Positions 1-64,000 of a stretch of 64,000 nucleotides of DNA are shown here, piece by piece. Position 1 is the first letter of the stretch. Each line of letters begins with the position of its first letter. The notes beneath the pieces were generated by a model. The model saw only the letters and a program-made list of their open reading frames with translations. It had not been told where the DNA came from and searched no databases. The translations under genes were made by a program, and so were the position numbers. This DNA comes from Myxococcota bacterium (GTDB lineage: Bacteria; Myxococcota_A; Polyangia; Nannocystales; Nannocystaceae), in assembly GCA_039028615.1 (NCBI GenBank), contig JBCCHT010000058.1, positions 1 to 64,000 of the forward strand, in the 5' to 3' direction.

Positions 1-247
1 CAGCCGTGCTCCGTCTTCCCTGATGGCTGTTCGATGGCGAAGGCGCTCCCCAAACACCCCCTCCCGCGGAACAAACGACTCCCCCGCATCAGATCCCCGA
101 ACCCACCCTCCAACACCCACATCGTCACCCTCCCCACCACCAAAAACCAATCTCCCTTCCCGCCTGCAACCACGCCATCCTCCCCCCGTCTCAAAGGCAC
201 CCCGAGGCACACCCGCCTCGAGAAAATCCAAGAAAGCAGGCACGACC

Positions 248-1801
248 ATGGGATTGCTAGACAAGATGTTCGGCGGCGGCACCAAGCTCGAACTCAAGCT
301 CGACACCGACAAGATCCCCGAAGGCGGAACCCTCTCCGGCACCCTCTCCCTCTCCGGCGGCAAGAAGCCCCTCAAGCTCACCGCCCTGAAGGTCCGCCTC
401 GTCTACATGAAGGTCGAGTCCAACGACGACTCCCCCATCCCCGACATCGACGTCCAGGTCCTCCTCGACAACACCGTCGTCGCCAACGGCGAGCTGCCCC
501 CCGGGTCCCTGCAGAAGCACGACTTCTCGTTCAAGGTCCCGACCGGCACCGACCCCGACGGTGACTATCGCGTGATCGCGGTCGCCGATATCCCCAAGGT
601 CAAGGACCCCAAGGCGGAAGCCAAGCTCACCGTCATCGCCCCCGATCCCTCGGGTGCCAACCAGGGCATGTTCAGCCGCCTCACGGGCAAGCCGAACGAG
701 GACGAGATCCTGGCGCAGTTCCCCGGCTTGATGTCGGCCGACGAAGACGAGCGCTCCGATGCGCTGCACGAGCTGACCTGCGCCTCGTATGACGAGGACA
801 ACAACTTCGTGAACATCGCGGGCAAGCTCGGCCAGATGATGAACGAGGGCTCGGCCGATTTGCGGGCAGCGGCGCTGCAGGCATGGGGCAACGTGCTCAA
901 CAACCGAGCGCAGCCCGAGCACATCCAGGCGCTGTCGAACATGGCGGCCGACCCGGCCGTGGCCTCCGATCGCCGCCTGATGGACGAGGTGATCTCGGTG
1001 GCGGCCAAGTTCGCGGAGGAAGGCGCGGCCCCGCTGGTGAAGTGGTTCGCGCAGCACGAAAATCCCGAGATTCGCAAGGAGATGGCCGACCGCATTCGCT
1101 TCGATGCGGACGACGAGTTCCTCGAGAAGCGGGCGATCCTCTCCGCGATGGTCAACGACCCGGACGCGGGGGTCCGTGCGTCGGCGGTGGGGGGCCTGAG
1201 CGAGTACAACGACGAGGCGGCGATGGTCCAAGACTTCGCCCAGCGCTCGATCTCCGATCCCTCGCCCGAGGTCCAGGCGGCATGCCTGTCGGCGCTGACG
1301 CTGTCGCATCACAACGGCCACGGCGAGGTGGTGTTCGCGACCTTCCAGCAGCACCTGCAGAACCAACACGTGAAGGTGCGCAAGGAGATCGCCGAGTCGT
1401 GCCACTGGCTGCCCACCGATCCGCGACTGGCCGGCATCGTGCACGCGCTGCTCAGCGACCCGAGCCCCGAGGTCCGTCGCGCGATGGCGTGGCAAGGGGT
1501 CAACATGAGCGAGCACCCCGAGCTGGGTGAGCTGTTCATGCGGGCGTGCGACGACCCCGACCAAGAGGTCGCCCAGGATGCGCTCAAGGGCATGGGGCGC
1601 CTGCTCGGGTGGGACGCCGGCGTGCAGTTCTATCGCCAGCGCATGGCCCAGCGGCCCACCGAGGAGACCTACTGGGGCGTCTACTACGGCATCTACGGCG
1701 ACCTCGACGAGGCGCCCGCGCTGGCGCTGATGAAGGAGCTGGCGTCGTCGCACTTCGCCGACGTGGCGAGCTCGGCTCGCGAGGCGCTCGAAGACGCGTA
1801 A
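248..1801 (+). CDS. Spo0M/arrestin-like N-terminal domain fused to HEAT repeats
   Basis: ATG at 248 (MGLLDKMFGGGTKLELKLD...GGTLSGTLSLSGG...ADIPKVKDPKA) resembles the Spo0M family. The C-terminal two-thirds has repeated DPDAGVRASA / DPSPEVQAAC / DPSPEVRRA HEAT motifs. Confidence 0.7.
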   Translation: MGLLDKMFGGGTKLELKLDTDKIPEGGTLSGTLSLSGGKKPLKLTALKVRLVYMKVESNDDSPIPDIDVQVLLDNTVVANGELPPGSLQKHDFSFKVPTGTDPDGDYRVIAVADIPKVKDPKAEAKLTVIAPDPSGANQGMFSRLTGKPNEDEILAQFPGLMSADEDERSDALHELTCASYDEDNNFVNIAGKLGQMMNEGSADLRAAALQAWGNVLNNRAQPEHIQALSNMAADPAVASDRRLMDEVISVAAKFAEEGAAPLVKWFAQHENPEIRKEMADRIRFDADDEFLEKRAILSAMVNDPDAGVRASAVGGLSEYNDEAAMVQDFAQRSISDPSPEVQAACLSALTLSHHNGHGEVVFATFQQHLQNQHVKVRKEIAESCHWLPTDPRLAGIVHALLSDPSPEVRRAMAWQGVNMSEHPELGELFMRACDDPDQEVAQDALKGMGRLLGWDAGVQFYRQRMAQRPTEETYWGVYYGIYGDLDEAPALALMKELASSHFADVASSAREALEDA

Positions 1802-2486: not shown

Positions 2487-3485
2487 ATGTACCGATATCC
2501 GTTTACGCCTTATCCCAATGGTTGGTACCGCGTGGCTTATGCTCATGAGCTGTCAATTGGTGAAGTGAAGCCAATCGAGGCGCTGGGGCGTGATCTCGTG
2601 GCGTTTCGGGGCGAGGACGGGCGCGTTCGCGTGCTCGATGCTCACTGCCCGCACCTGGGGGCGCACCTGGGCTACGGAGGCAATGTCGTCGGGAACGACA
2701 TCGCGTGTCCGTTCCACGACTGGCGCTTCAACGGCGAGGGCGAGTGCGTCGACATCCCCTACTGCTCGGGTCGAGTGCCCAAGCGCGCCCGGGTGGACGC
2801 GTGGACGGTCTGCGAGCGCAACGGGGTGGTCTTCATCTGGTGGGATCATCAAGGGCGTCAGCCCAGCTTCGAGATCCCGGTGGTCGCCGAGGTCGACGAT
2901 CCGAAGTGGACGAAGCCGCTCGAGTTCACCTGGCGCACGCGCGTGCACATTCAAGAGGTGGCCGAGAACGCCCTCGATCTCGCCCACTTCGGCAAGGTGC
3001 ACCACTACCTCGACTTTCCCGAGCTGCGCTCGTTCACGACCGAGGACCACGTGCTTCAGGTCGGCCTGAGCGCGGGCCGACGAGTGATGGGCGTGACCGG
3101 CCGCAGCACGATGGACATCACCTACCACGGCCTGGGGGTGGTGCACGCTCAGGTCGCGGGGCCCGGCATCGAGCTGGCGGTCATCCTGACCACGACGCCC
3201 GTCGATCAGGAGCATTGCGACATCCACATCGCGGTCATGAACCGCAAGTCGCGGATCCCCCTGAAGGACTTCGCGCTCCGTCGCTACATGCGGTGGGAGA
3301 TCGGCACCGACTTCGCCCACGACATCCCCATCTGGGAGCACAAGCAGTATCGAACCCGCCCGCTGCTGGCCAAGGGCGACGGACCGATCATGAAGGTCCG
3401 CAAGTGGGCGGAGCAGTTCTACGAGGAAGCGGCGACCCGCGACGAGGCGGCGACCGACAAGACCCACTTGCCGCTGGTCGGATGA
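2487..3485 (+). CDS. Rieske [2Fe-2S] non-heme iron oxygenase, cholesterol 7-desaturase (Neverland/DAF-36)/KshA-like
   Basis: PYPNGWY start, CPHLGAHL...CPFH Rieske motifs, ENALDLAHFGKVH iron motif, C-terminal DIPIWEHK...DGPI..RKWAEQFY. Confidence 0.9.
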   Translation: MYRYPFTPYPNGWYRVAYAHELSIGEVKPIEALGRDLVAFRGEDGRVRVLDAHCPHLGAHLGYGGNVVGNDIACPFHDWRFNGEGECVDIPYCSGRVPKRARVDAWTVCERNGVVFIWWDHQGRQPSFEIPVVAEVDDPKWTKPLEFTWRTRVHIQEVAENALDLAHFGKVHHYLDFPELRSFTTEDHVLQVGLSAGRRVMGVTGRSTMDITYHGLGVVHAQVAGPGIELAVILTTTPVDQEHCDIHIAVMNRKSRIPLKDFALRRYMRWEIGTDFAHDIPIWEHKQYRTRPLLAKGDGPIMKVRKWAEQFYEEAATRDEAATDKTHLPLVG

Positions 3486-4324
3486 TGCGCGCCGCCAATA
3501 CCGAGCGCACTCGGTTTCCCTTCCGCGCCTATCCCGACGGGTGGTTCGCGGTGGCGAAGCTGGCCGAGTTGCCCGTACGCCGCACGCTCTTTGGTCGCCC
3601 GACGCTGATCCGTTGGCACGGCCAGCGGATCGAGGCGACGGATCTGCCTCACCTCGAGGTGCGCGACGGCTTGATCTTCGCGTGGCACCACGCAAGCGGC
3701 GAGCCGCCGAGCTTCCGCATCCCGCCCGTCGACAACACGCGCTGGTCCAAGCCGGTCATCGACACCTTGGAGGTCTCGAGTCACCCGCAGGAAGTGCTCG
3801 AGAACACGGTCGACACGCAGCACTTCATCAAGGTGCACGGCTATCGCGACTTCGAGTCGCTGCAGCCCGCGTACACCGAAGGGCCGCACTTTCACGCGAG
3901 CTACCGCTTCACGCGGGCACTGCTCGACCATCCCGCGAGTCCGCGCGTCCCCATCGAGATCGAGATCCAGGCCTCCGGGCTCGGCTACTCGCGGGTCGAG
4001 GTCACGGTGGTGCCCGTGGGACTCCGCGCTCGTCTCGAGGTGATGGTGACGCCGCTGCTCGACGAGCGCTGCACCCTGCGCTCCGCCACGCGCGTGCAAT
4101 CGCCCGCGCTGCCCGGCCCGTGGTCCTCGCTGCAGTGGCCGGTCGATCGGCTCTTCGACGGCGTCGCTCATCTCGCGGCGCTCGGCGGTCGAGCCGACGT
4201 CCGCGACGACCTGCGCCTGTGGCAGCACAAGATCTACGCGACGCGGCCCGTGCTCATTCGCGACGACGGCCCCATCGGTTCGTATCGCCGCTGGGCTCGC
4301 CAGTTCATGCGCGAAGCCGCCTGA
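3482..4324 (+). CDS. Rieske oxygenase paralog lacking the [2Fe-2S] subdomain (catalytic domain only)
   Basis: ATGA overlap with the upstream stop. YPDGWF start, no CxH/CxxH, retains ENTVDTQHFIKVH and DLRLWQHK...DGPIGSYRRWARQF. Confidence 0.85.
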   Translation: MMRAANTERTRFPFRAYPDGWFAVAKLAELPVRRTLFGRPTLIRWHGQRIEATDLPHLEVRDGLIFAWHHASGEPPSFRIPPVDNTRWSKPVIDTLEVSSHPQEVLENTVDTQHFIKVHGYRDFESLQPAYTEGPHFHASYRFTRALLDHPASPRVPIEIEIQASGLGYSRVEVTVVPVGLRARLEVMVTPLLDERCTLRSATRVQSPALPGPWSSLQWPVDRLFDGVAHLAALGGRADVRDDLRLWQHKIYATRPVLIRDDGPIGSYRRWARQFMREAA

Positions 4325-4364
4325 GGTTTTCGCCCTCTCACCCTGTGTTCATCTGGAGCTTTTC

Positions 4365-5411
4365 ATGTCCCCCGCCATTCCATCGAGCTGGTACTACGTC
4401 TGCGAGACGAGCGAGGTCGCCGTCGGAGAGATCCGTCGGGTCGAGGCCTTCGGTCGCACGCTTGCGCTGTGGCGCACACAAAGCGGTGCCGTGCATGCCA
4501 CGGACGCGACCTGCCCTCATCTCGGCACCGACCTGACCAAGCGCGGTCGGGTGGTGGGCGAGGAGCTGGAGTGCTTCACGCACAAGTTCCGCTACGACGG
4601 CGCGGGGGACTGCGTCGCCACGGGCACGGGGGAGATGCCGTGTCGAAGCCAGGGCGTGCTGCGCAAGTACCCCGTGCAGGAGACGGCCGGCTTCGTGCTC
4701 GTGTGGTACGACGCCCACGGCCGCGAGCCGACCTGGACGATCCCCGAGGCCCCGCTGGGCTACGAGGGGCGCGGGCGGCCGTGGAAGAGCCAGTACGTGT
4801 TCGAGACCTGCGCGCAGACGATCAACGAGGACAACTTCGACATCGGCCACCTCTACTCGTGGCACGAGCTGCACGAGGTCGCGTCGGCGCCGGTCGAGGT
4901 CTACGGGCCGAGGCTGCGCATCGTCCATGACTTTCGGCGTCACTCGCTGGTGCTCAAAAAGCCCCTGCCGCCGCCCTTCGACGTGCTCTCGCAGGAGATC
5001 GTGAGCCGCTACAGCGCCGACCTGTACGGCCACGGGCTGACCCTGTCGCAGATCGACCTGCCCACGGTGGACTTTCACGTCGAGGACGTCATCTGGGTGA
5101 CGCCGATCGACGACAAGCGGATCCGCTACACCACCTTCCTGCGCCAGATCCGACCCCAGGGCGCGCGAACCTTGCGACAGCGCATGCTCGACCGGGTGCT
5201 GCACCCGCTGCTGGTGCCGATCTTCGTGGCGCGACTCCGCCAAGAGCACCGCCACGAGGGCTACGGCTTCTGGCAGAACCAAACCCACATCGCCGACCCG
5301 ATCCTCCGCGAGAGCGAAAACGAGTACGTTGGCGTCTATCGGGAGTGGTGCAAGCAGTTCGAGCCGGGCCCCGCGCCCGAGCAGCTCACCGTGTTGCGGA
5401 GGCCGGCATGA
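4365..5411 (+). CDS. Rieske oxygenase paralog with divergent ligands
   Basis: CPHLGTDL...CFTH Rieske motifs, EDNFDIGHLYSWH iron motif, C-terminal HEGYGFWQNQ...YREWCKQF; ggag RBS upstream. Confidence 0.85.
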   Translation: MSPAIPSSWYYVCETSEVAVGEIRRVEAFGRTLALWRTQSGAVHATDATCPHLGTDLTKRGRVVGEELECFTHKFRYDGAGDCVATGTGEMPCRSQGVLRKYPVQETAGFVLVWYDAHGREPTWTIPEAPLGYEGRGRPWKSQYVFETCAQTINEDNFDIGHLYSWHELHEVASAPVEVYGPRLRIVHDFRRHSLVLKKPLPPPFDVLSQEIVSRYSADLYGHGLTLSQIDLPTVDFHVEDVIWVTPIDDKRIRYTTFLRQIRPQGARTLRQRMLDRVLHPLLVPIFVARLRQEHRHEGYGFWQNQTHIADPILRESENEYVGVYREWCKQFEPGPAPEQLTVLRRPA

Positions 5412-5911
5412 TCATCCCGCCGCGCTGGGTGATGCTGTGGCTGCTGGTGAGCATCGCGATCACGGGCTGGGACGCGAGCTTCGTGCTGATGCGTCCGCAC
5501 TCCATGCCCGGAGGAGACCTGGCGTTCTTGTGGCCGCCCTATGAGACCTACGTGGTCGTCGACCACGGCTACGGCGACCTCACCAACGGCTGGATCGCGG
5601 GCCAAGCGGTGATGACACTGGTCGAGGTCGTGCTCGGGTTGTCCGCGCTGCTGCTGTGGCGGGCGGGTCACGCGATGGCGGGTCCGGTGGCGCTGGTGAG
5701 CATCGCCATGACGGGGGCCAAGACCAGCCTGATCTTCCTCGCCGAGTGGATGTCCGGCCTCGAGAACGTGGGCCACAACTCCACCGCCGACCTCATCTCT
5801 CTTTATGTGCTGCCCAACGTGGTCTGGGTCATCGTGCCCATCATCGCGTGCGTGGCCCTGATGCGCTCGATGAGCGTCCCGCTGAATGCGAGCCCGTCAT
5901 GCGCAACCTGA
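5408..5911 (+). CDS. EXPERA/emopamil-binding-protein-like 4-TM membrane protein (sterol isomerase-like family)
   Basis: ATGA overlap; four hydrophobic segments; WD..FVL.RP, LW.PY..Y..VD..YG, E, KT and LYVLPN.VW.IVP motifs resemble EXPERA proteins. Confidence 0.7.
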   Translation: MIIPPRWVMLWLLVSIAITGWDASFVLMRPHSMPGGDLAFLWPPYETYVVVDHGYGDLTNGWIAGQAVMTLVEVVLGLSALLLWRAGHAMAGPVALVSIAMTGAKTSLIFLAEWMSGLENVGHNSTADLISLYVLPNVVWVIVPIIACVALMRSMSVPLNASPSCAT

Positions 5912-6756
5912 GCCCGCATTCGTCGAGCGAGACACCCGCCGTGCTCTCGCCGGAGCCGAGGGGGTGGTTCGCACTCGTGCCCTCCCACCAGCTCGGTCGC
6001 GGTGGATCCTGGTCGGGGGTCGTGGCCAACCAGGCCTGTCGCATCACACGGGCCGCCGACGGCTCGATCCGCGGAGAGGGGGCGCTCGGTCCCTTCGTCG
6101 AGCAAAACGGCTTCGTGTTCGCGTGGCACGGTGAGGGCGAGCCGAGCTTCGTCTTGCCCGCGTTGCCCGAGCAGGGCTGGAGCGCCGCCAAGTTCCACCG
6201 CATCGATGCGCAGACCCACCCGCAAGAGGTCTACGAGAACAGCATCGATCACGCGCACTTTCCCATCATCCACAAGTACGCCGACATCGAGGTACGACAG
6301 CCGATGGTCCTGCACGCGCACTCGATGCGGGTCGGCTACCGGATCTCCCGAGCGCTGCCCGGCAGCCAGCGACGATTGACGAGCGAGTTCGAGGTCCAGC
6401 TGCACGGGCTCGGCGTGGCGCACAATCACATCGAGGTCCCGCTGCTCGGCATGCGGACGAGGATGCTCGCGCTCGCCACTCCGACCACCCCGGGTCACGT
6501 CACCCTGTGGCTGCGGGTCAGCGTGCGCTTCGATCGTCCGGGGGTGTTGGGGGCCTTCACCCGCGCTCTCACCCCGCTGGCCCTGGCCGCGACGGCGCAG
6601 GGCATCGTGCACGATTTTCGCCAAGACCTGAGCATCTGGGCCCACAAGCGCTACCTCGAGCGCCCCGTGCTCGTGGCGGGCGACGGCCCCATCGGTCGCT
6701 TCCGTCGCTGGGCTCGACAGTTCTATGGTCCCGTGCCGGCTGGAGCGGTCTCGTGA
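5899..6756 (+). CDS. Second Rieske oxygenase paralog lacking the [2Fe-2S] subdomain
   Basis: PRGWF start, no CxH/CxxH, retains ENSIDHAHFPIIH and QDLSIWAHK...DGPIGRFRRWARQFY; overlaps the upstream gene by 13 bp. Confidence 0.85.
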   Translation: MRNLSPHSSSETPAVLSPEPRGWFALVPSHQLGRGGSWSGVVANQACRITRAADGSIRGEGALGPFVEQNGFVFAWHGEGEPSFVLPALPEQGWSAAKFHRIDAQTHPQEVYENSIDHAHFPIIHKYADIEVRQPMVLHAHSMRVGYRISRALPGSQRRLTSEFEVQLHGLGVAHNHIEVPLLGMRTRMLALATPTTPGHVTLWLRVSVRFDRPGVLGAFTRALTPLALAATAQGIVHDFRQDLSIWAHKRYLERPVLVAGDGPIGRFRRWARQFYGPVPAGAVS

Positions 6757-7766
6757 GCATCGAGTCGTCCGTTCCCTTCGGCGCCAACCGAGGTCGCCCC
6801 TCCCTGCCGCCGTATCCCAATAGCTGGTATCGCGTCGCCTTCTCCCACGAGGTCCCCCGCGGCACGGTGAAGAGTGTGTCGGCCTTTGGCCGCGACCTGG
6901 TCGTGTTCCGCGGCGAAGACGGTGAGCTCGGTGTCCTCGATGCCTACTGTCCGCACCTGGGGGCGCACCTGGGCCACAACGGCCGAGTCGAGAACAACGC
7001 CGTCGTGTGCCCCTTCCACGCGTGGAGCTTCGACAAAGGAGGCGAGTGCACGAAGATCGCCTACTGCGACAAGATCCCCAAGCGAGCGCGCGCCGAGGCC
7101 TTCGAGGTCGACGAGCGCAACGGCATGGTGTTCGTGTACCACCACGATCGTGGCCAGGCGCCCGCCGCCCGCGTCCCCGAGATCCCCGAGCTGTCCGATC
7201 CCGACTGGCTTCCCTACCGCTCCATCACCGTGCCCGTACGGGCGCATGTGCAGGACATGGGGGAGAACGCCGTCGACGCCCCGCACTTTCAGGTGGTGCA
7301 CGGCACCAAGGACGTCCCCGACATCGCGCGCGTCGAGGTCTCCGACGATCGCTTCGTCACCCGCCTGGTCGATCACTTCGACTTCTTCGGCAAGTCGCGC
7401 CCGGTCGACATCGAGATCAGCATCTATCAGCCCGGCTTCACCACGGTGCGGATCGGGCTGTTCATGAAGGTGCTGATCGTGACGACGACGACCGCGGTGA
7501 GCGAAGACCTCACCACGCAGACTCACTCGATCGTGGTCCGGCGCGGCCGCGTGCCGCTGCTGGCCCGCCTGTTTCGCTGGTTCTTCATGCGGGAGATTCG
7601 GCGGCAGCTCGAGCAAGACCGCCAGGTGCTCGACTACAAGCGTTACAACGAGGTGCCCGTGCTGTGTGCCGAGGACGGGCCGGTCATGAAGTACCGACGC
7701 TGGTTCTCGCGCTTTTACTCCGACCAGACGCGCGCGAGCCGACGACGCCTGGACGTCGTCGGCTGA
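6753..7766 (+). CDS. Rieske [2Fe-2S] oxygenase, Neverland/KshA-like
   Basis: GTGA overlap; PYPNSWY, CPHLGAHL...CPFH, ENAVDAPHFQVVH, QDRQVLDYK...DGPVMKYRRWFSRFY. Confidence 0.9.
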   Translation: MSIESSVPFGANRGRPSLPPYPNSWYRVAFSHEVPRGTVKSVSAFGRDLVVFRGEDGELGVLDAYCPHLGAHLGHNGRVENNAVVCPFHAWSFDKGGECTKIAYCDKIPKRARAEAFEVDERNGMVFVYHHDRGQAPAARVPEIPELSDPDWLPYRSITVPVRAHVQDMGENAVDAPHFQVVHGTKDVPDIARVEVSDDRFVTRLVDHFDFFGKSRPVDIEISIYQPGFTTVRIGLFMKVLIVTTTTAVSEDLTTQTHSIVVRRGRVPLLARLFRWFFMREIRRQLEQDRQVLDYKRYNEVPVLCAEDGPVMKYRRWFSRFYSDQTRASRRRLDVVG

Positions 7767-7790: not shown

Positions 7791-8294
7791 CTACTGCACC
7801 GCGGCGCGGGCTTCGTTCCCCTGCGGCACGCCCTTGGGCCCGATCAACACGCCGTGCTCGAGGTGATCGGAAAGCCCTTCGAGGACCTTGTCGAGCAACC
7901 CGGTGATCTTGCCGCGCATGGCGACCGCGTTGAGGGCCGCGCCCAGAGGCCCGAACTTCGGGCGGTAGTCCATCGTGATGGTGACCTCGCTCCGGTCATC
8001 GGCCAGGGGCGCGACAGTGAAGACCGCGGTCACATCTTGCGCGGGCAGAGGCCCCTCGAGGACGTCGACGGTCATCGACACGCCGTCTTCGACAGCGACC
8101 ACCTCTTCGATGGCTTGCCCGCCTCCGTAGAAGTGACAAGCGCGCTTTGCGCCTACTCCACTCGGCACGGCGTTGAGGATCGGGGAGCTCTCGACTCCCG
8201 GATGAAAGCGATGCACTCCCCCGAAGTCGGCCAGGGCCGCCCAAACCCGGTCGGAGGAGGCATTTACGGTGCGTTTGACGTCGACTTGGCGCAT
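7791..8294 (-). CDS. SRPBCC (START/polyketide cyclase-dehydrase) family protein
   Basis: VWAALADFGGVHRFHPGV...GVGAKRAC...SEVTITMDY pattern, 167 aa; aaggaa RBS. Confidence 0.85.
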   Translation of the reverse strand: MRQVDVKRTVNASSDRVWAALADFGGVHRFHPGVESSPILNAVPSGVGAKRACHFYGGGQAIEEVVAVEDGVSMTVDVLEGPLPAQDVTAVFTVAPLADDRSEVTITMDYRPKFGPLGAALNAVAMRGKITGLLDKVLEGLSDHLEHGVLIGPKGVPQGNEARAAVQ

Positions 8295-8364: not shown

Positions 8365-8382
8365 ATGTGCAACGATGCACAT
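8365..8382. promoter_or_regulatory. Dyad, probable regulator operator in the SRPBCC/LysR divergent promoter
   Basis: ATGTGCA-acga-TGCACAT perfect inverted repeat, with a third half-site TGCACAT at 8333-8339. Confidence 0.45.
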
Positions 8383-8383
8383 C

Positions 8384-9319
8384 GTGAACTCGGATGATCT
8401 CCGCTTCGTGCTGGCACTTCACGACGAAGGCACGCTGGTGCGAGCAGCCGGCAAGCTTCGGGTGAGCCACACGACCGTCGCCCGACGCATCGCGGCGCTG
8501 GAGGCCGAGCTGGGGAGCACGCTGTTCACCAAGGCCGCCGCCGGGCAAGTGCTCACGGCGGCCGGCGAAGCGGTGAGAGACGTGGCGCGTCGCGTGCACG
8601 AGGAGCTGACGTCGTTGGAGCGCGACGTCGTCGGGCGTGATGCGAGGTTGAGCGGGACCCTTCGCGTGACCACGATCGACGCGCTCGTCCTTCACAATAC
8701 CCGCGAGCTGTCGAGCTTCGGCGAGCGATACCCCGATGTCGAGCTCGACGTCGTCGTGGACAACCGAATGCGGAGCTTGACTCGTCGCGAAGCCGACGTG
8801 GCGGTCCGGTTCACGAACGCTCCCGCGGAGCACTTGGTCGGTCGGAAGATCGGTCGGCTCGAGTTTGCGCTGTACGGAGCACGAGAGCTCATCGAAGGTC
8901 AGGCCGACCCGGCCGATGTCGCCACCTACCCCTGGCTGTCATGGTCGGAGTCGGAGCGGACGGGCATGGCCGAGCACTTCTTTCGGCAGCACGCCGATGC
9001 CGGTCGACCGGCGATGCGGGTCGACTCGTCGATCAGCCTGTGGGCGGCCGCTCGAGCGGGTGTGGGGGTGGCGTTGCTCGGGTGCTTGTGGGCGGATCGA
9101 ACGCCCGGCCTGCAGCGGATCGGGGGCCTGTGGCCCGACGCCGGCTTGGACCTGTGGATCTTGACCCATCCCGACCTTCGACGAACCTCGAGAGTCCACG
9201 CGTTCATCGAGCACTTCGGCGATGCGATGCGGTGTCACCAAGACACCATGAGCGGCGCGCATCCGCTGGTTCCGCCGATCGAGAACGTCGCGCCGTTGCC
9301 GACGGGCAACGGCGCTTGA
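8384..9319 (+). CDS. LysR-family transcriptional regulator
   Basis: NSDDLRFVLA...AAGKLRVSHTTVARRIAALE HTH, LTAAGE, YPDVEL, READVAVR. GTG start at 8384 preferred (ATG 8375 is the alternative). Confidence 0.92.
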   Translation: MNSDDLRFVLALHDEGTLVRAAGKLRVSHTTVARRIAALEAELGSTLFTKAAAGQVLTAAGEAVRDVARRVHEELTSLERDVVGRDARLSGTLRVTTIDALVLHNTRELSSFGERYPDVELDVVVDNRMRSLTRREADVAVRFTNAPAEHLVGRKIGRLEFALYGARELIEGQADPADVATYPWLSWSESERTGMAEHFFRQHADAGRPAMRVDSSISLWAAARAGVGVALLGCLWADRTPGLQRIGGLWPDAGLDLWILTHPDLRRTSRVHAFIEHFGDAMRCHQDTMSGAHPLVPPIENVAPLPTGNGA

Positions 9320-14370: not shown

Positions 14371-14716
14371 GCGGTGGCTCTTATCATTTCGCACGCGCGA
14401 TCGAATGAACGGTCATCACCCTCATGCTCTTCACTGACAGTGAACGCGTTGGGCAATCCGTACTTTTTGCGCTTCAAGCCCAAGTCGCGAGCGGCCTGTC
14501 GGGGGGGCTACACGTGCAACAGAGGGAAGGTTCAATAAACCTGCGAAGGGCCGATCTTTGTGATTCCATCGCCGATTTTCGACGTGTAGCTTGTAGGTCA
14601 AGGTGAACGATGTGGGTTCACTGCCCACCAAGGCAGTGGAGTCGTTCATCGCGGAAGGCTGGGGGCCAATTGGGCTCCCAGACGTGGGGAACGTAGGAAA
14701 ACAGGAGGTCTGCGTG

Positions 14717-16438
14717 ATGCGACCAATGCGCATTCGTGAGGTCGTGGTTGCCCTGGGGCTGACCATGGCCAGTTGTGGAGACGGTTCCGACGGCCGGGCG
14801 GGCGATCCCGCGCGGCCCGGGGCGGACGGCGAGGATCAACAGCCGCTGGACGTGGAGCCGCTCGATCTGACCTCGAGTTTCGAGGACGCGGCGGAGGAGT
14901 TCGACGTACCGGTGCAGCTGCTGCAATCGGTCTCGTACACGGAGACCCGCTGGCAGATGGTGGACAGCGAACTGGAGTTCGAAGGGCGCCCGGCCACCTT
15001 CGGCCTGATGGCGCTGCGGTCCGATCGGCTCGAGGACGCGGCGGAGCTGGCCGGGGTCGACCCCGACGAGGCGGCCTCGGAGGTGGGCGCGAACATTCGA
15101 GCCGCGGCGGCGTGGATGTCGGCGCAGGCGGACATGCTCGGCGTGGAGGATCGAGCCGACCTCGGGTCGTGGGCGGAGATCGTCGCCGACTACAGTGGAA
15201 TCGAAGACGAAGTCGGACGCTCGAGCTACGTGTACCAAGGGGTCTACACGACGCTGCGCGAGGGCCTGTGGGTCGAGTCGGCGTCGGGAGAGTTTCGCGG
15301 CGAGATGGAGCCGGTCGATGCGTGGCCATCGTTCTTGGTACCGCCGCCGTCTCCGGTCGTCGCCCCCGGACCGGACTACCCGGCGTCGCTGTGGCGCCCC
15401 TCGGCCAACTACAGCAATCGTCCCGGCGGCGCGATCGGTGACCCGGGGATGGTCATCATCCACTCGTGCGAGGGCTCGTACGCGGGCTGCTGGAGCTGGC
15501 TGAAGAACCCGGCTTCGGGCGTCAGCGCCCACTACGTGATCAAGGAAGACGGCGAGGAGATCACCCAGCTGGTCCGCGAGAGCAAGAAGGCGTGGCACAT
15601 CTCGGCCTCGTACGACTGCGATCGCAACAGTGACGTGGAGTGCTGGCGCAACGGCTACTCCAGCAACCACTTCACGGTGGGCATCGAGCATGCGGGCTAC
15701 GCGGGCCAGGCGAGCTGGGATCCCACGCTGATCGACGAGTCGGCGAAGCTGGTCTGCAACATCACCGAGGACCAGGACATCCCGCGCGACAGCTACCACA
15801 TCGTTTCGCACGGTCAGCTGCAGCCGTGGAACCGCGTGGATCCGGGCCCCAACTGGCCATGGGACGACTACCTCGACCTGATCGATGCGCACTGCGGAGA
15901 GGCGGCACCGCCTCCGCCTCCGCCTCCGGGCGGCGGTGGCGATCCTCCGCCGCCCGACGATCCGCCTCCGCCCCCCGGCGAAGATCCGCCCCCGCCCGGC
16001 GGTGAGCCGCCCGACTCGATCATCATCGACAGCAACAACGACAACAACGACGAGGCGCTGGGCTTCATCGCCAAGTCGAGCAACTGGATCTCCTCGAGCG
16101 GCTCGGCGGAGCGCTACGAGACGGGCTACTGGTACGCGGGGGCGAGCCCGGTCTCCGACCCGGTGACGTTCTGGTTCCACTCTCCCGACGGGGGCGAGTA
16201 CACGGTCGACGCCTGGTGGACCGCGGGCACCAACCGCAGCGCCACCGCGCCCTTCGTGATCTACGGCGAAGGCGAGGGCGTGAGCGTGGTGAAGGTGAAC
16301 ATGCAGCAGGACGGCGGCCAGTGGAACGAGCTGGGCACGTGGACCTTCGCGCCCGGCTGGAACAAGGTGCAGCTGTCTCGCTGGACCTCGGGCGGCGGCG
16401 TGGTCATTGCCGACGCGCTGCGCGTGCGCAGCCCCTGA
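14717..16438 (+). CDS. N-acetylmuramoyl-L-alanine amidase (Amidase_2) lipoprotein with N-terminal lysozyme-like and C-terminal golvesin/CBM-like domains
   Basis: aggagg RBS; MASC lipobox; [46 protein letters not shown]...DPG; Pro-rich linker; YTVDAWW..GTNR...WNELG...VIADA. Confidence 0.85.
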
Positions 16439-50113: not shown

Positions 50114-50406
50114 GCAATCGCACGACGCGCAGCCAACTTACAGTGCTTTTGCGACACGACGGACCGCGCAGAGCAGGCCCGGGTGCGACCGAGGTCCGAG
50201 CGCGAACGCGAGTGCGCAACGGACCAACGCTTTAGCGTCGAAACGGGATGGAGTGGTCGAGCGCCGTCCGTTGTCTGAGGGTCAATACATGCTCTGACGT
50301 TCGACTAATCTTGGGGGATGTTGCGAAAATCGCGCGGTGCCGACGCCGCGAATTCTCTCATCTGAGGGGGCCCTACGCGCCGGTTTGGGTGCGTACCATT
50401 GCCGCC

Positions 50407-52200
50407 ATGACGTGGATTACCGCTCGTGATCAGCTCACCTTGCCGCTCGCGTCCGCCCTGCTGCTGGCGTTGTCGGCCTGCGGCGACGACGGAGGCAACG
50501 CGGACACCAACGGCGCGAGCTCGACGGGGACCAACACCATGGCGTCGACGGGGACGCCCACGCCCGACCCGGCCACCACCACCACGGGCGAGGATGCGAC
50601 GGCCGAAGCCACGGCCGACGAGACCGGCACCGACGAAACGACGGGCGGTGGCAACACCAACACGTTCTGCGAGGACGAAGGCCTGCCCGTGGCTCCGCTG
50701 GCCGATGCCGAGGGCACGGACTGGGGCCAAGTGGCGGGTACCTTCGCGGTGGAGACGACCTTCGGGCCCTTCGACCTGGCGCAAGAGTACAGCGGCTGCG
50801 AGAACTACATCTTCTTCAACGACGTCGGCGATGGCACGAGCAACGGCCTGCAGGACACGATGAGCGAGGACCTGTTCCTGCGCTCGGCCAGGAACGTGCA
50901 CTACTTCTTCCTGACCTCGTCGGGCGACGCGGCCGCGGGGGCGAAGAACTGGCAGTCGATCGTCGGCGGGGCGCTGTTCAACGTGCCCGAGGCCGACCAG
51001 GCGTACTGGACCGAGCGCGTGCACTTCGTGACCGACGACCCGGCCAGCATCGCGGGCAGCGTGGGCGCGTTCGTGTCCGCCAACCCCAACCAGGCGGTGT
51101 TCGGCATCGACCGTGCGCAGACCTGGGACAACCCGGGCTCGACCAGCGACACCACCACGGGGGCCTTTGCCACCACCGCGGGGGTGCTGGGCTACGTGGC
51201 TCGCTACTACAACTTCCGCTACGAGCAGGACCAGTGGGTCGACAGCCTCGACGCCACCGAGGTCCCGATGATCGACAACGTCGAGTTCACCCCCGACTGC
51301 GTCCAGGGCGAAGAGTGCTTCGACACGCAAAACGGCCCGTTCTCCAACAGCAACAACTGGCAGCCGTGGCCGGTCGAGTTCCCCGATGCGGCGACCATGG
51401 CCGGCTTCGACACCATGGACCTGATGATCACCGCGACCTGCGGGCCCAGCTCGTACGCCGACTGTGGCCACTGGGACTACGAGGCGGTGGTCAACCTGTG
51501 TGAGAACGAGACCTGCGAGGGGGGCAACCGCGAGGTCGCTCGCTGGATCACCCCGTACTCGCGTCCCGGTCGACGTCGCTGGGTCATCGACGCCACGCCC
51601 ATGCTGGGCATGGTGGCCGACGGCGGCACGCACTACTTCAACTTCGGGATGATCTGGAACATGAACCCCTCGGTCTGGGACCTGCGCTTCATGCTGCGCA
51701 ACGAGGGGCGCGACGACAGCTCGGCCGAGGTCGTCACCGCGTTCTCGGGCAACCGAGGCTTCAACGACACCTACAACGACGCCTGGGAGACCGTGGAGTT
51801 CACGCCGCCGGCCGGGACCACCCGGGTCGAGCTGGTGGCGATCATCTCGGGTCACGGGCAGGACGACGGCAACTGTGCCGAGTGGTGCAACCACCAGCAC
51901 GAGTTCACGGTCAACGGCACCGACACCCACCTGCGGGAGTTCCCCGGCCAGGTCATCGCTCAGCGCTGCGCCGACGCGGTGGACGAGGGCGTGGTGCCCG
52001 GGCAGTGGGGCAACTGGACGCCGGGTCGCGCGGGCTGGTGCCCGGGTCAACCGGTGCAGCCCTGGCGCATGGACATCACCGACCAAGTGACCATCGATGC
52101 GGTCAACACCCTGGACTACCAAGGCCTGTACAACAACGTGCCGGTCACGGGGAACCGCGGGCGGATTCGCCTGAGCAGCTACGTGGTGTTCTACCAGTAG
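50407..52200 (+). CDS. Peptide-N-glycosidase F-related lipoprotein
   Basis: LSAC lipobox; CGHWDY, E.ARWITPY, ISGHG...CAEWC, GNW...RAGWCPG. Confidence 0.8.
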   Translation: MTWITARDQLTLPLASALLLALSACGDDGGNADTNGASSTGTNTMASTGTPTPDPATTTTGEDATAEATADETGTDETTGGGNTNTFCEDEGLPVAPLADAEGTDWGQVAGTFAVETTFGPFDLAQEYSGCENYIFFNDVGDGTSNGLQDTMSEDLFLRSARNVHYFFLTSSGDAAAGAKNWQSIVGGALFNVPEADQAYWTERVHFVTDDPASIAGSVGAFVSANPNQAVFGIDRAQTWDNPGSTSDTTTGAFATTAGVLGYVARYYNFRYEQDQWVDSLDATEVPMIDNVEFTPDCVQGEECFDTQNGPFSNSNNWQPWPVEFPDAATMAGFDTMDLMITATCGPSSYADCGHWDYEAVVNLCENETCEGGNREVARWITPYSRPGRRRWVIDATPMLGMVADGGTHYFNFGMIWNMNPSVWDLRFMLRNEGRDDSSAEVVTAFSGNRGFNDTYNDAWETVEFTPPAGTTRVELVAIISGHGQDDGNCAEWCNHQHEFTVNGTDTHLREFPGQVIAQRCADAVDEGVVPGQWGNWTPGRAGWCPGQPVQPWRMDITDQVTIDAVNTLDYQGLYNNVPVTGNRGRIRLSSYVVFYQ

Positions 52201-58232: not shown

Positions 58233-61200
58233 CTAGCCCGCGTCGACAAGCTGCCTCTCCATTTCCTTCGCCCTTTGGTAGCACGCGATGCCCAACGCGT
58301 GCTCCATATGGAGCGCGCGGTCGTTGAAGTCATCGTCGAGGCAGTGGAGACCTGCGATGAGCTGGTGATACTCGCGCTGGCCTTCTACGATGCCGAGCCC
58401 GGCACGCAGCTTCCTCAGCGCCTCGTTCGCGAGCGATTCGAGCTCGTCGGAGAGACCCCGAGACGACTTCATCCGGCTGAGTACGAAGCCTCCGATCGTC
58501 AGTCCCACGGTCATGGGCGAGAAGTGGCCCGGTGAGTCGAACAGTGACTCCAGCCGTAGCAACTCTCGAGGGTAGCGAAGGTCCGCGGGTGACTGCTCAG
58601 CTTTACGCCTCGTCGCGTGATCCACTAGCCCACGGACAGCAACCATACGGTAGTACATCGGATACGGAAAACGGTCGATCATGTGCTCCAGCACCGTCCG
58701 TGGATTCGGCTTGCCAGCGTTAGCCTGCATGATGCCCTGGCCGACGAGCCACTGCCGTATCGTGGCCCTCGTATCGACATGGTCCCGACTTTTGGTGTCC
58801 TCTTCCGCAAGAAGCTCCAGCAGAAACCAAACGACCACCACCGAGATCATCGAGCGGTGGGACCTCCACTGCTCCTTTCCGTCGACGAGAGAGCCCGCGA
58901 CGAGGATGCGCCGTAGGCACCGCCCCAAAGTCGTCTTGGCCACTTCGACCGAGGGACGCAACGCTTGAGCGAGTTCCCCATTTTGCATCTCCGACGCGGC
59001 CGCGAGGCAATAGATCGAGTACGCAAACCGTACTCCGGTTCGCACCATCGTGCTCGCGTCACCATGCTGCTCCATGACCTCCATGGCGAGTGCGCTGGTC
59101 TCATCATATCGATGAAACGTGCCCTCTTTTTCCTGAAGGCAAGGGACCTCCTCGAGAATGAGCTGCGCCGCGTTCCAGCGCCCCCACTCTTGTCGCGAGC
59201 CAATGCCTCTGAGCCACTCGAGGAGGACTGTGATACTGGCGTTCTGAGAGGTGCCGCCGGCCCAGATCTCCGGTTCACAGGGATCGAGCTGCGATAGCCA
59301 CAGCTCGCTCACGGCGACGAGCAGTCTCTCTACGCGAAGCGAGATCGCCCGCGGCAGGACTCCAGAGGAGTCGAGCGGAGCGCCGAGTTTCTTCTCGCTG
59401 CTCATGGCTCGATGCCAGCAGAAGCTCCGGATGTCGTGCATCGCAAGACATGCGTGATAGAGTGCTCTTTGACGGTATCCGGTCTGTATGCTTCCGGACG
59501 CGCCCTTCCAAAAGTAGAGGTCCACTGCCTGCGCATGGACGTCGGACATCGCGAGGGCGAAGTTGGTGTCTTCCGGCTGACGCGGATCCAGGTAATTCTC
59601 GTTGGGGATTTCGCTCCCTTTTTTCACGAAGGGAAGGTCTTTGCGTAGCGCCCGAAGCTCCCTTTCAACCATGGAGACGCTGTTCTCCACACCGACCGAG
59701 CTCTTCTCCGCGAGCCATGCCTCCGCGAACAGAGGCAGATAAATGATGCGCCAGTGTTTCAGGCTGTCGATGGCGCTGACCCTCGGGTCTGCTCCGCACA
59801 GGTACGCGTCCGACATTCGATTGCCGAGGGTACGGGCATCACGATAGATGCCGATCGCGCGCTCGTGGTTCTTGGCCCGCTCGTACGTCATCCCGATCTG
59901 GAGCATCAGCCGGATTCGTGCGATGCACCATGCGCCCCGGTTCTGGAAGAAGCGACGCTGTGCAGAGCGCCAGTTCTCCCCTTCGGGCGCGCTCGTACCA
60001 TGTTGCTCGTCGAGGTAGTCGATCGCCTTCCCATAGTGATAGCGGGCGCGCTCGAACTCTTGGTCGAAGTCGCAGAGTTCTCCGAGCGCGCTATGAAACT
60101 CCTGGAGATGAGCATCGTCGCCTTTCGAGTTCGCGATGCGGGCTCGGTATTGGTCTTTGAGGCGCTGTGTCTCGTCGAGCGTGAAGTTGTACGACGCCAT
60201 CTCCGCCTGAGACGCTCGTGAGAGGTACGCGACCTCGGCGGCCATGTCGCTTCGAAAGCGAAAGCTGTACATTCCGTTCAGGATCGGGTGAAGGTACTCG
60301 CCGTTCCAGTCCTCGACGAACTCGGTGACCATGTCTCTGAGGTCTGGGATCCGGTGGATATGCGACAGCTCCTCCATGCGCTCCAGGCTGCTCCAGGAGA
60401 ACGCACGCCGATGGAACTTCGTCACGAAGTCGACCAGCTGGAGTAGGGACCGTACGGCCTTATCGTCACGGCCGGCCAGTCGTTGCTCGAATCGGTTCGC
60501 CAGGCGGCGATAGACCTCCGACGTCATCCCGACCCGAAACCGATCGATGTCGCCGAAATAGAGCACGTGCGGCCCCGTGAACTGGCCCCAGCGAATGCGT
60601 TTGTCGTCGATGATGCGTCCCGCCGAGCGAACGAACCCTTCGAAGAGAGCATCGAGCTGCTTCGGGCCACCCCGACTGCGAAACGTGAGGTATTCGATGA
60701 CCTCTCGCCCGAACTCCTCCGACCAGAGTTCCTTTTCGGGGAGGCTGTGCTCATTCGCCTCACGCGGGCCGACCTCGAGGACACGAAAGTCATTGCTCGT
60801 CCCGTCTGCGCCGGCCTCGGTCCGAGCCGACAGCGGCGTTACGACGGGATTTTGTACATAGACTGGCAGCACGGAGTTGCGATGGCCGAAGACGATGTCA
60901 TGCCGTTGCTGCCAGTGGCGAGCCCTCTTCGACGATCGGGCCAGCTGTGCCTGCACGTACGCGAGGGTCCCGTCCGTCATCCTCTTGCCGATGTCGTCGA
61001 CCAGTAGCGAGGGAATGTAGATCTCCGCGTCGAAGATCGTGCTGAGTAGCGGGCGTTGGGCCGTCCGATCGGCGAGCCATTCATCGTGCAGGTTGCGCCC
61101 GCCGATGAAGATGAACCGCGCCGGAGCACTCGACATCAGGCCCTTGAGGTTGGCCAGGAGGCGGAGGGTACGCTCGGTACGCTCTCGCTCCGTGTCTTCG

Positions 61201-63668
61201 GTCGTCGCCTTGTCGCGCGGCAGGGGCTGGATCTTGTCGACCTCATCGAAGATGAACGTGATGTCGGGCGAGGGAACGCTGATCTCCAGCCCGCCCGGCA
61301 AGGTGATGTGGTCGCGATGAAAGTCGTTCAAGATGTTCATCAGCGCTTGCTCGACCTCGACTGGACTCGCTGCCTTTCGGTGATACTCGATCTGCGTGTT
61401 GGGAGACGTGACTCGGAAGAGTCGGGGCGAGAAGGTGACGGTGCCCGGGTTTCTTTGCTCTTTGATTGGCCCAGAGAGGTGCCGCAGCTGTTTTCCTAGC
61501 CGGCGATATGTGCTGGCATAGAACGACGAACCGAACTTCACGCCAGCGAAGTGGAATCCGAAGGCGGTGGCCAGCCATACCAGGGCCAGGTATCCGACAG
61601 GATCGGTGGCTGGTCTTCCTTTGTCGTTTCGCGGGAAGAATGTGGTCGTGAGTAGATCGCCGGTTGGAAGCTCAGGAGAGACTCCTTCAGATCGCGAATC
61701 CGTAAGTGGTTTTCCGAAGGCGCCTCCGAGTGCCCTGGTCTCGAACTCGGTATAGAAAACCGCTTCGCCTACCGTTAGCGCCACTGTTGTTACTGCGGTA
61801 AGCCACACGAGCCTGGAAATGAGACCGATGCCGCTTCGCCATGACGCGAAGTTCTGACGGAACTGCTCTCGGAGTTCGGACATCATCATCGAGATGACTT
61901 CACCGTGCTCCAGGGTGTCGCAACCCAGCGATGACTTCACGACGATCGTTGGGCGCCAAGACGACATCGAAGCCCAGAAGAGCGTGGCGGAGGCCATTTT
62001 TCTATGGCGTATCTGAAGGTTGAGTTCGTTGCCCTGCTCGGAAGTGGCTCTTGGTGTCTGCCCGGAGAGCGGCTCGTTGGCATTGTCCGCTCGAGCGCCT
62101 GCGTAAGGATGAATGATCCACTGGTACTCGAAAGCGGCGAGCACGAGTAGGCACACCAGCATTCCGACGATCCACTGTTGGCTGGTCTTGGCGGACCACA
62201 GATAGTCGTACGGGTAGGTTTCGTACAGCGGCCGGAGGAGGAGGAGGGTCGCGATCGATATCGTGGCGCCCGTCAAGAGAAGGGAGATTTGCGGCGACGA
62301 GTTGAAGTGGAACCACGGCGTTTTGGGAACACACTGGGCCTTCTTTGCTGTCGCTTTGCTCTGTCCGATGGCACTTGCCGCCATGGACGGCAAGCGTGCG
62401 CTGATGTTGATCGGAGTGCTCGTTCCTCGCTCGATCGGTGTCTTCGATTTCTTGAGGACGAACGGGTAGTTGTTGCTTTGCCGATATATGGTGGTGACGG
62501 CCGGGTGTTTGATTCGTCTCGTAACCCCAAAAAGGACGGCGACGAGGACGGGGGTGAGGGTAAGGAGGTGCCAGCTTGCGAAACGACCCCGGTCGCCCGA
62601 AAAATGGACGCTGGCGTAGATAAACAGGAAGGTGATGGCGACGCTCGTGACGATCGTCAACTTCGGCCAGTTCCATAGGCGGTGCCAGCCGGGCCAGTGT
62701 CGAAAGGAGTGGCCATCGGGGGTTGGGAGAAGTCCGGAGAGCCAGAACGTGTCGTGAGCGCGAAACAGCGCTGCTACGCAAAGGCCTGTTCCGAAGCCGA
62801 AGCTCGAGATCGCGATCGCGTTGTCGCTGGTGGTGAACGTGAACACGATGACGTTCACCAGTACGGTGAACGCCAGCAGGATCTGGCACCAGCTCGGTTG
62901 GATACCGAACCGAAGGCCACGACGAGAGGCGCTGGGGGATAGGGGGTCGATGTCGACTCGGTATTTCTCGGCGATCGAGAGCGCTCGATAGACTCCAGCG
63001 GTCGTTCCGCAGATCGATATGGCCACCCAGGGGACCTTGAGCGGCTCGATGGCCAGCCAAGGGGCAGGAACGTAGCCGGCGGCGCAAACCACGATGATGG
63101 CCAGGAATGCAACGAGGGCCAGAACACGCGGCCAGCATTCAGTCCACCGCTCGAAGTCGATCGCCAGTGCGATCGCCAAGGTCCGAGTCGAATAGTAGAG
63201 GGGGAGGAGCAACGTGGCGACGACCACGAAGAGGACGAGCCATTCGAGGATGACCAAGGCTGTCGGAAATTCTTTCTCGTGACTGTCCGAGAAGAACTCG
63301 CTGAGCCAGAACTCCAGGAGCTGCGACGTGAGCAGGAAGAAGGTCAGTATCGCGGCGATGGTGCAGGCGAACAGCAGCAGGTCGAGCGGGCGGCGACCGG
63401 CCTTGCTTCGAACGAAGCGCTCGTACACCTCGGTTTCGTACTGCCCGAGCACGAAATCCGTGAAGGTCGTTTTCCCAGTGCCGCGATAGCCTGTGATCAA
63501 GTACGAGCCGTGGGTGCTCGCACTGCGGAGAAGATCGAGCAGTCGGGCTCTCTGACGCGCACGGCCAATCAGTGTCTCGTTGGCAGGCGGTGGTGCAGAA
63601 TTGGAGCCTTCATAGAGACCGAGATCGGAGGCATAGATCTTGTTGGTTGGGGAGCGATCGTCAGTCAT
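58233..63668 (-). CDS. Giant multi-TM P-loop NTPase (KAP-like) with C-terminal TPR-like region
   Basis: Walker A GYRGTGKT (63468-63491); Walker B ITFIFDEVDK (about 61233-61262); about 12 TM segments between them; FIFIGGR; TPR-like helices. ORF is open to 63998; ATG 63668 chosen. Confidence 0.8.
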   Translation of the reverse strand: MTDDRSPTNKIYASDLGLYEGSNSAPPPANETLIGRARQRARLLDLLRSASTHGSYLITGYRGTGKTTFTDFVLGQYETEVYERFVRSKAGRRPLDLLLFACTIAAILTFFLLTSQLLEFWLSEFFSDSHEKEFPTALVILEWLVLFVVVATLLLPLYYSTRTLAIALAIDFERWTECWPRVLALVAFLAIIVVCAAGYVPAPWLAIEPLKVPWVAISICGTTAGVYRALSIAEKYRVDIDPLSPSASRRGLRFGIQPSWCQILLAFTVLVNVIVFTFTTSDNAIAISSFGFGTGLCVAALFRAHDTFWLSGLLPTPDGHSFRHWPGWHRLWNWPKLTIVTSVAITFLFIYASVHFSGDRGRFASWHLLTLTPVLVAVLFGVTRRIKHPAVTTIYRQSNNYPFVLKKSKTPIERGTSTPINISARLPSMAASAIGQSKATAKKAQCVPKTPWFHFNSSPQISLLLTGATISIATLLLLRPLYETYPYDYLWSAKTSQQWIVGMLVCLLVLAAFEYQWIIHPYAGARADNANEPLSGQTPRATSEQGNELNLQIRHRKMASATLFWASMSSWRPTIVVKSSLGCDTLEHGEVISMMMSELREQFRQNFASWRSGIGLISRLVWLTAVTTVALTVGEAVFYTEFETRALGGAFGKPLTDSRSEGVSPELPTGDLLTTTFFPRNDKGRPATDPVGYLALVWLATAFGFHFAGVKFGSSFYASTYRRLGKQLRHLSGPIKEQRNPGTVTFSPRLFRVTSPNTQIEYHRKAASPVEVEQALMNILNDFHRDHITLPGGLEISVPSPDITFIFDEVDKIQPLPRDKATTEDTERERTERTLRLLANLKGLMSSAPARFIFIGGRNLHDEWLADRTAQRPLLSTIFDAEIYIPSLLVDDIGKRMTDGTLAYVQAQLARSSKRARHWQQRHDIVFGHRNSVLPVYVQNPVVTPLSARTEAGADGTSNDFRVLEVGPREANEHSLPEKELWSEEFGREVIEYLTFRSRGGPKQLDALFEGFVRSAGRIIDDKRIRWGQFTGPHVLYFGDIDRFRVGMTSEVYRRLANRFEQRLAGRDDKAVRSLLQLVDFVTKFHRRAFSWSSLERMEELSHIHRIPDLRDMVTEFVEDWNGEYLHPILNGMYSFRFRSDMAAEVAYLSRASQAEMASYNFTLDETQRLKDQYRARIANSKGDDAHLQEFHSALGELCDFDQEFERARYHYGKAIDYLDEQHGTSAPEGENWRSAQRRFFQNRGAWCIARIRLMLQIGMTYERAKNHERAIGIYRDARTLGNRMSDAYLCGADPRVSAIDSLKHWRIIYLPLFAEAWLAEKSSVGVENSVSMVERELRALRKDLPFVKKGSEIPNENYLDPRQPEDTNFALAMSDVHAQAVDLYFWKGASGSIQTGYRQRALYHACLAMHDIRSFCWHRAMSSEKKLGAPLDSSGVLPRAISLRVERLLVAVSELWLSQLDPCEPEIWAGGTSQNASITVLLEWLRGIGSRQEWGRWNAAQLILEEVPCLQEKEGTFHRYDETSALAMEVMEQHGDASTMVRTGVRFAYSIYCLAAASEMQNGELAQALRPSVEVAKTTLGRCLRRILVAGSLVDGKEQWRSHRSMISVVVVWFLLELLAEEDTKSRDHVDTRATIRQWLVGQGIMQANAGKPNPRTVLEHMIDRFPYPMYYRMVAVRGLVDHATRRKAEQSPADLRYPRELLRLESLFDSPGHFSPMTVGLTIGGFVLSRMKSSRGLSDELESLANEALRKLRAGLGIVEGQREYHQLIAGLHCLDDDFNDRALHMEHALGIACYQRAKEMERQLVDAG

Positions 63669-64000
63669 GGGCCATTGGGGGCGGGTCGACGGAGATGGCC
63701 GCGGCGGAAGAACCGAGGGCCGGCGAGCGGAGTGCGCTGGTAGGGTCCCGCGCAGGCCTGGGAGAACCGCGCTGAATACTGAGGTGGAGGTTGTGGGGGG
63801 AAAATTTCGGGTTCTGAAGAAAATCCCTTCGATCGTTTGGTTCGTCACCGAAGTGGCACCTTCGTGCAAGAACTGCCGTCGTGGTTTCGTGTTCGACGAC
63901 GGAGCCACGGCAGCACGGATCGGATTGGAGCTACATGTCCAGAGGTGGCTTCGTGGAGTCGGCCGCGGGCCACCACGGAACTCGGAGACCGGCGACACCG

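Follow-up and report, generated by a model that had tools for sequence, protein, structure and literature searches.

How can a Rieske oxygenase subunit that has lost its Rieske cluster still be supplied with electrons? The question is raised by six plus-strand genes, named A to F, at positions 2487-7766 of a 64,000-nucleotide stretch of DNA from a Myxococcota bacterium (GenBank assembly GCA_039028615.1, contig JBCCHT010000058.1, positions 1 to 64,000; hereafter the window), two of which, B and E, encode KshA-type subunits without a Rieske domain. In the reading that we favor, which appears probable, B and E take electrons from the clusters of their operon paralogs, likely within mixed oligomers that would oxidize or desaturate a sterol-like lipid at the membrane. 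The genes are arranged as follows.

Gene A, 2487..3485, plus strand: complete KshA-type Rieske oxygenase alpha subunit with cluster motifs and a canonical iron site; core gene.
Gene B, 3482..4324, plus strand: 280 residues, Rieske-less with iron ligands present, deletion junction near 3655; core gene.
Gene C, 4365..5411, plus strand: intact Rieske cluster motifs and a rebuilt iron site; core gene.
Gene D, 5408..5911, plus strand: EBP/EXPERA-like membrane protein (sterol isomerase superfamily); core gene.
Gene E, 5899..6756, plus strand: 285 residues, from an ancient clade that is Rieske-less throughout, with a deletion junction near 6100; core gene.
Gene F, 6753..7766, plus strand: extra complete Rieske oxygenase, non-core; candidate electron donor for B.

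Pfam assigns Rieske and KshA_C domains to A, C and F and KshA_C alone to B and E (88 and 100 bits, respectively). As the first-pass annotation of this DNA had stated, the reading frames of B and E are intact and open throughout, and the absence of a block of about 50-60 residues holding the CxH and CxxH motifs is borne out: the N-terminal Trp motif and the iron-site Glu are 87 residues apart in B and 91 in E, compared to 147-148 in A, C and F, so that the two proteins are 56-61 residues shorter in the cluster-binding part. Neither motif occurs within the first 140 residues of B or E, the alignment to neighboring genes runs either side of a single gap, and the first cluster motif of B is reduced to a P-H-L remnant in which the Cys is replaced. 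The bridging Asp, two His and C-terminal Asp that had been reported to survive are all in place (N108, D111, H114, H119 and D243 in B; N114, D117, H120, H125 and D243 in E). Of the attributes of a Rieske alpha subunit, B and E thus possess, at the level of sequence, the 2-His-1-carboxylate iron site and the bridging Asp, along with a predicted KshA-like fold, and lack the cluster motifs. Across 261 residues, the AlphaFold2 model of E (predicted local distance difference test score 90.3) matches the structure of KshA (4QCK; Z 24.2, root-mean-square deviation 2.8, 22% identity), and its Rieske stump is accordingly predicted to fold. The impression that B and E are closely alike did not hold, because they are only 33% identical (B-A 35%, E-A 31%) and their common H-P-Q-E motif is found also in Rieske-bearing relatives; a recent duplication producing the pair is not favored, given this identity and their separate starred clades. 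The approximately unbiased (AU) test gave p 0.065 for a tree that groups B with E, which is thus not rejected.

Such proteins form a sizeable population. From 323 gathered KshA-like proteins, a set that contains some duplicates and is biased by its seeds, 19 were removed as probably truncated before counting; 247 carry Rieske motifs and 57 carry the N-terminal motif without cluster motifs. All 57 retain Glu-Asn, the bridging Asp, both His, the ligand Asp and the following Trp, Lys and Pro, a retention that equals or exceeds that of 198 Rieske-bearing proteins. An alignment of 36 Rieske-less proteins displays the same gap and invariant ligands, and nearly every Rieske-less protein preserves the stump of the domain together with the residues that follow the ligand Asp. 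Four proteins (P0152, P0230, P0231 and P0235), 220-230 residues long, have lost nearly the whole Rieske domain, with the iron ligands present. Decay, which the first-pass annotation had proposed to recognize by orthologs that keep the Rieske domain or evolve under relaxed selection, finds no echo in E: none of its orthologs retains the domain, the 31 best homologs (40-54% identity, 220-295 residues) being free of it in the precomputed annotation of 120 of 229 matches, and, in the 11 of 28 pairs for which dS could be measured (saturation affecting the remaining 17), its ratio of nonsynonymous to synonymous substitution rates (dN/dS) is 0.22-0.62, indicating purifying selection; Rieske-bearing neighbors lie at 0.37-0.65 (C) and 0.14-0.62 (A). 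For B, P0009 (84% identical) has the same deletion, and P0014 and P0042 are likewise Rieske-less. By these comparative measures, B and E are conserved and evidently functional rather than decaying.

Does the surrounding operon hold as a unit? Among 160 loci, taken from 80 of 265 and 80 of 431 confirmed matches, six carried an E-clade gene, with C adjoining E in five (L001, L002, L081, L082 and L084), and a further operon locus came from a genome search. Gene order is A,B,E,C,D in L001 (an Oceanococcus metagenome-assembled genome, MAG), A,B,C,E,D in L081 and L082 (the latter cut within D), and X,A',E,C,D with B on the opposite strand in L166 and L167, which belong to two gammaproteobacterial genomes of 2.8-2.9 Mb; the alternation of Rieske-less and Rieske-bearing genes remarked on earlier is therefore real in the window and not conserved elsewhere. 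A orthologs are 48-57% identical in L001, L081 and L082, and Rieske-less in L166 and L167. Searches with a C profile matched 1 of 73 genomes in the window's own order and 1 of 401 in a sample of its phylum (in both cases itself), 2 of 86 in the order of G452 and 1 of 187 in that of G451; there were no matches in the classes of G453 (0/182) and G756 (0/400) or in plasmids, where, since the large searches scored 5-11 candidates per genome, zeros mean not found rather than absent. As far as gene content can tell, the operon is thus rare and conserved, combining four core paralogs (A, B, C and E) with the membrane protein D.

What is constant across the fuller loci is the number of clusters: all six hold three Rieske domains, carried by different genes (A, B and C in L001, L081 and L082, where B of L081 and L082 has its cluster; X, B and C in L166 and L167; A, C and F in the window). 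Loss of the Rieske domain in A or B is lineage-specific and coincides with an extra Rieske gene, and E is always cluster-less. A catalytic-domain tree of 78 rows shows an E clade without any Rieske-bearing member (100/99) and a B clade (98/99) of mixed states, and places A', the Rieske-less A of L166 and L167, within the complete A genes (99/92). It calls for at least 10 state changes, re-fusions counted, and a larger fast tree for 9. A single origin of A' and E was rejected by the AU test (p 0.0006).

Directly upstream of A' lies X, a Rieske protein of 209-236 residues with no iron motif and a dN/dS of 0.19. Because X groups with A (Shimodaira-Hasegawa support 94), duplication followed by reciprocal loss is suggested, through which A would have become one Rieske-only and one iron-only gene. 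F was considered as a degenerate donor related to X, an idea rejected on the grounds that its ligands are intact and that X groups with A; its iron site is canonical, its Trp-to-Leu change recurs in 10 of 149 relatives, and it has no close relative (best match 43%). Iron-only and Rieske-only paralogs, the hallmark of a split-cofactor system, thus stand together in L166/L167 (X and A') and also in L010, where a second, three-gene KshA-like operon (L010 4028-7038; L062 4994-8822) ends in a Rieske-less gene, and the L010 gene before it retains the cluster and has lost a His and the Asp ligand. The window itself contains no strictly Rieske-only gene, C being the nearest to one.

In two further loci (L085 1837-3021 and L090 7629-8867) a Rieske domain is fused in front of a Rieske-less unit that still shows its own stump, and the added domain belongs to the lineage of the upstream gene of this sister system (99/95). 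These fusions are the strongest sign, at the level of sequence, that Rieske-less subunits still depend on a neighbor's cluster. Together with the split of A and the compensating genes, they lend genomic support to the earlier proposal of catalytic-only subunits fed by adjacent paralogs. Elsewhere, two tandem divergent Rieske proteins are encoded near a KshA-like gene at L138 862-2813 (minus strand).

How might the electrons travel? In a KshA trimer, each chain's iron receives its electrons from the cluster of the preceding chain by way of a conserved Asp (PMC6153880); in mixed oligomers of the same kind, A, C or F would feed E and B. A cluster-less subunit could accept electrons, not pass them on, and the subunit downstream of E would be left unfed, so that C, with its cluster kept, its iron site rebuilt and the following residues altered, would fit there; a possible ring order runs from C via A to E, where it closes on C again. 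The heterotrimers in which the first-pass annotation had placed B and E fare less well by this geometry, because a three-membered ring with both would feed only one of them, and separate rings or a larger assembly would be needed. Window B would require its own donor in a second ring, for which F is the candidate. The reductase would be supplied from outside the operon.

The non-canonical iron site of subunit C and the membrane gene D between C and E had not figured in the earlier description. Both cluster motifs are kept throughout the C family (46 sequences, mean column identity 61%), and its model is predicted to fold like KshA. Both iron-site His and the bridging Asp are invariant; the Asn is changed to Asp156, the ligand Asp column is occupied by Gly299 (Gly in 49/49), a new invariant His295 (49/49) appears alongside invariant Glu294 and Glu298, the latter one place before the Gly of the ligand column, the Lys after that column is Gln in 48/49 and the Asp-Gly-Pro motif is lost. 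From these substitutions, the iron site of C may be lost, shifted or enlarged.

As for D, the family profile weakly matches human sterol delta8-delta7 isomerase (EBP; E 3.9e-4), Pfam EBP (PF05241) matches 4 of 6 D orthologs (best E 3.5e-5) and not D of the window, and the atlas is concordant with an EBP/EXPERA-like assignment of the family; the protein likely binds or isomerizes the sterol substrate or product. KshA-type steroid hydroxylases are the closest solved relatives of the operon oxygenases, and SdmA, a sterol C-4 methyl oxidase (4beta-methylsterol monooxygenase), leads the NCBIfam matches of A, C and F, at 57-85 bits against a cut-off of 600 (model NF052579; no match for B or E). Some homologs are automatically named cholesterol 7-desaturase, the activity of Neverland/DAF-36; both Neverland/DAF-36 and SdmA are single-gene enzymes. 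The window's genome also has a cyclase with a DCTAE motif, which we take to mark an oxidosqualene cyclase. Finally, a marine myxobacterium synthesizes cholesterol as well as hydroxysterols (PMC10202945). On balance a sterol is the likelier substrate of the operon.

More tentatively, and in a reading that we think less likely than not, the operon could encode a modular sterol-tailoring oxygenase, in which four catalytic domains share three clusters, C carries an undescribed metal site, an EXPERA partner assists and the product is an unknown sterol derivative. Clusters would then move between genes in the course of evolution, and the metal site of C would comprise His162, His167 and His295 with Asp156, Glu294 and Glu298, possibly binding two metals.

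Several observations weigh against electron sharing among operon paralogs. The motif conservation seen in the 57 Rieske-less proteins is favored by their origin in B- and E-seeded searches. Many B orthologs retain the Rieske domain, which weakens a fixed design for B, yet shows, as far as alignments go, that loss is repeatable. Window B, a long branch in the tree, has a dN/dS of 0.55-1.02 against distant Rieske-bearing orthologs where measurable, and this ratio gives no support because it is saturated by GC bias and depth; the selection test thus bears out E and is uninformative for B. Furthermore, a separate clade of lone Rieske-less genes (L006, L054, L061, L068 and L135, from four myxobacterial MAGs and one metagenome contig) lies beside ribosomal protein genes, at a conserved position (match near 8000 in the long loci). 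With a dN/dS of 0.14-0.24, these genes exist under selection, and adjacency is therefore not required; the four genomes hold 8-11 KshA_C matches elsewhere. At L083 (7965-9355), E and D stand by themselves, none of A, B and C being encoded in the 8 kb upstream or the 6 kb downstream. A divergent LysR-like gene lies upstream of this pair. C is not a dead donor, because its catalytic domain is strongly conserved, and the ring order suggested above would not work should its site require electrons. F, with its canonical iron site, may be an unrelated recruit, and no more than two independent events of compensation underlie the three-Rieske pattern. As to the substrate, a triterpene cyclase was found in none of three other operon hosts, for which reason any sterol there would be taken from outside.

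Part of this evidence would be accommodated, in what we consider an unlikely alternative, if B and E were homo-oligomeric iron enzymes transiently served by a diffusing Rieske carrier (X, C or F, a ferredoxin, or a reductase bearing an additional cluster) and the operon a pathway of separate enzymes. There is a precedent in NdmC, which is fed by NdmD (PMC4408171); lone genes under selection and the isolated E-D pair are easily reconciled with it, and X, having lost most of its catalytic domain, could be such a carrier. What tells against a free carrier is that the fusions employ a paralog's Rieske domain and that the stump and post-ligand residues are kept so widely. Moreover, G452 and G467, the hosts of L166 and L167, have only five Rieske matches apiece, of which the operon accounts for three, and no stand-alone Rieske ferredoxin stood out among these, with one frame of about 205 residues per genome unread and the genomes possibly incomplete.

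A further alternative is that of subunits that need no outside electrons, carrying out a redox-neutral or substrate-fed step such as an isomerization, a rearrangement or a four-electron cleavage of an oxidized intermediate. Repeated clean loss and lone copies are most easily explained without a partner, and some members of 220-230 residues dispense with almost the whole Rieske domain. This option nevertheless sits poorly with the coincidence of A and B loss with an extra Rieske gene, with Rieske re-fusion and with a bridging Asp in all 57 proteins, though that residue also tunes a His ligand; we regard it as improbable. A purely structural or substrate-binding role for B and E in a mixed oligomer recalls the non-catalytic extra subunits proposed for other Rieske oxygenases (PMC9939785) and the START-like lipid-binding fold of the catalytic domain, and is rendered very improbable by the invariance of all iron ligands across 57 proteins from several separate clades. 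Pseudogene decay or an assembly artifact as the explanation of B and E, to which the long branch and uninformative dN/dS of window B might point, is scarcely credible given the same deletion in P0009 and the whole E clade, in Myxococcota-like and gammaproteobacterial hosts, dN/dS below 1 and the contradiction of decay already noted for E.

Electron sharing between paralogs therefore stays the reading we prefer. Within the operon, stop/start overlaps are present at A-B, C-D, D-E and E-F, and its GC content equals that of its surroundings, hence there is no compositional sign of transfer. No promoter-like site or meaningful terminator was found at the operon, and no RNA holder is listed for it. 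Neither a reductase gene nor an extra-Rieske reductase or GST-like (glutathione S-transferase-like) partner gene is present at window 2487-7766, L001, L081, L166 or L167. A TetR gene lies upstream of the operon in L001 and L081. In the window, the operon is directly followed by an SRPBCC/polyketide-cyclase-like gene and, past it, a divergent LysR regulator gene, neither of which was seen at other operon loci; these and four other genes are listed below.

7791-8294, minus strand: SRPBCC/polyketide-cyclase-like gene.
8375-9319, plus strand: divergent LysR regulator gene.
23-1801, plus strand: HEAT repeats joined to a Spo0M-like N-terminal domain.
14603-16438, plus strand: Amidase_2, a proline-rich linker and a Golvesin-like C-terminal domain.
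50248-52200, plus strand: protein with a PNGase F C-terminal domain.
58233-63998, minus strand: 1921-residue protein whose sole match is AAA_16.

A cluster that is repeatedly deleted, compensated and re-fused would provide a direct test of electron routing in asymmetric rings and of cluster sharing by several active sites, and a template for multi-step oxygenases. It also cautions that proteins with KshA_C only, when labeled hypothetical or truncated, probably have a function, and hints at an uncharacterized lipid or sterol modification, patchy among marine, soil and small-genome bacteria. A literature search, in which subscription papers were thinly covered, turned up no account of the operon or of KshA-type proteins lacking the Rieske domain. 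A 2025 review (PMC12445004) describes the solved Rieske oxygenases as C3-symmetric rings with both centers in every alpha chain. In sequence and fold, A, B, C and E match KshA (2ZYL, 4QCK, 4QDC and 4QDF) best, and its iron triad and bridging Asp are the same as those of A, B, E and F; it differs in being a homotrimer with both centers in each chain and a reductase, KshB (PMC6153880), whereas the operon has none. Two known systems separate the cofactors. NdmC of the caffeine N7-demethylase NdmCDE of Pseudomonas putida CBB5 lacks a Rieske cluster (PMC4408171), and NdmA and NdmB form an alpha3alpha'3 heterohexamer (PMC9939785); for NdmC, which belongs to a different subfamily, the reductase carries the cluster and a GST-like protein is needed as well, and neither gene occurs in the operon loci. 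In the split chlorophyllide a oxygenase (CAO) of Micromonas pusilla, MpCAO1 is iron-only, MpCAO2 is Rieske-only and both are required (bioRxiv 2025.02.10.637544 and PMC9615114). The split-cofactor principle being already known from Micromonas CAO and NdmC, the operon extends it with a multi-paralog architecture: the logic of split CAO is repeated by X with the Rieske-less A of L166/L167 and by the L010 pair, yet CAO is eukaryotic and has two genes and one substrate, whereas here there are four or five paralogs, a clean internal deletion, a loss that shifts from one subunit to another, and one subunit whose site is rebuilt.

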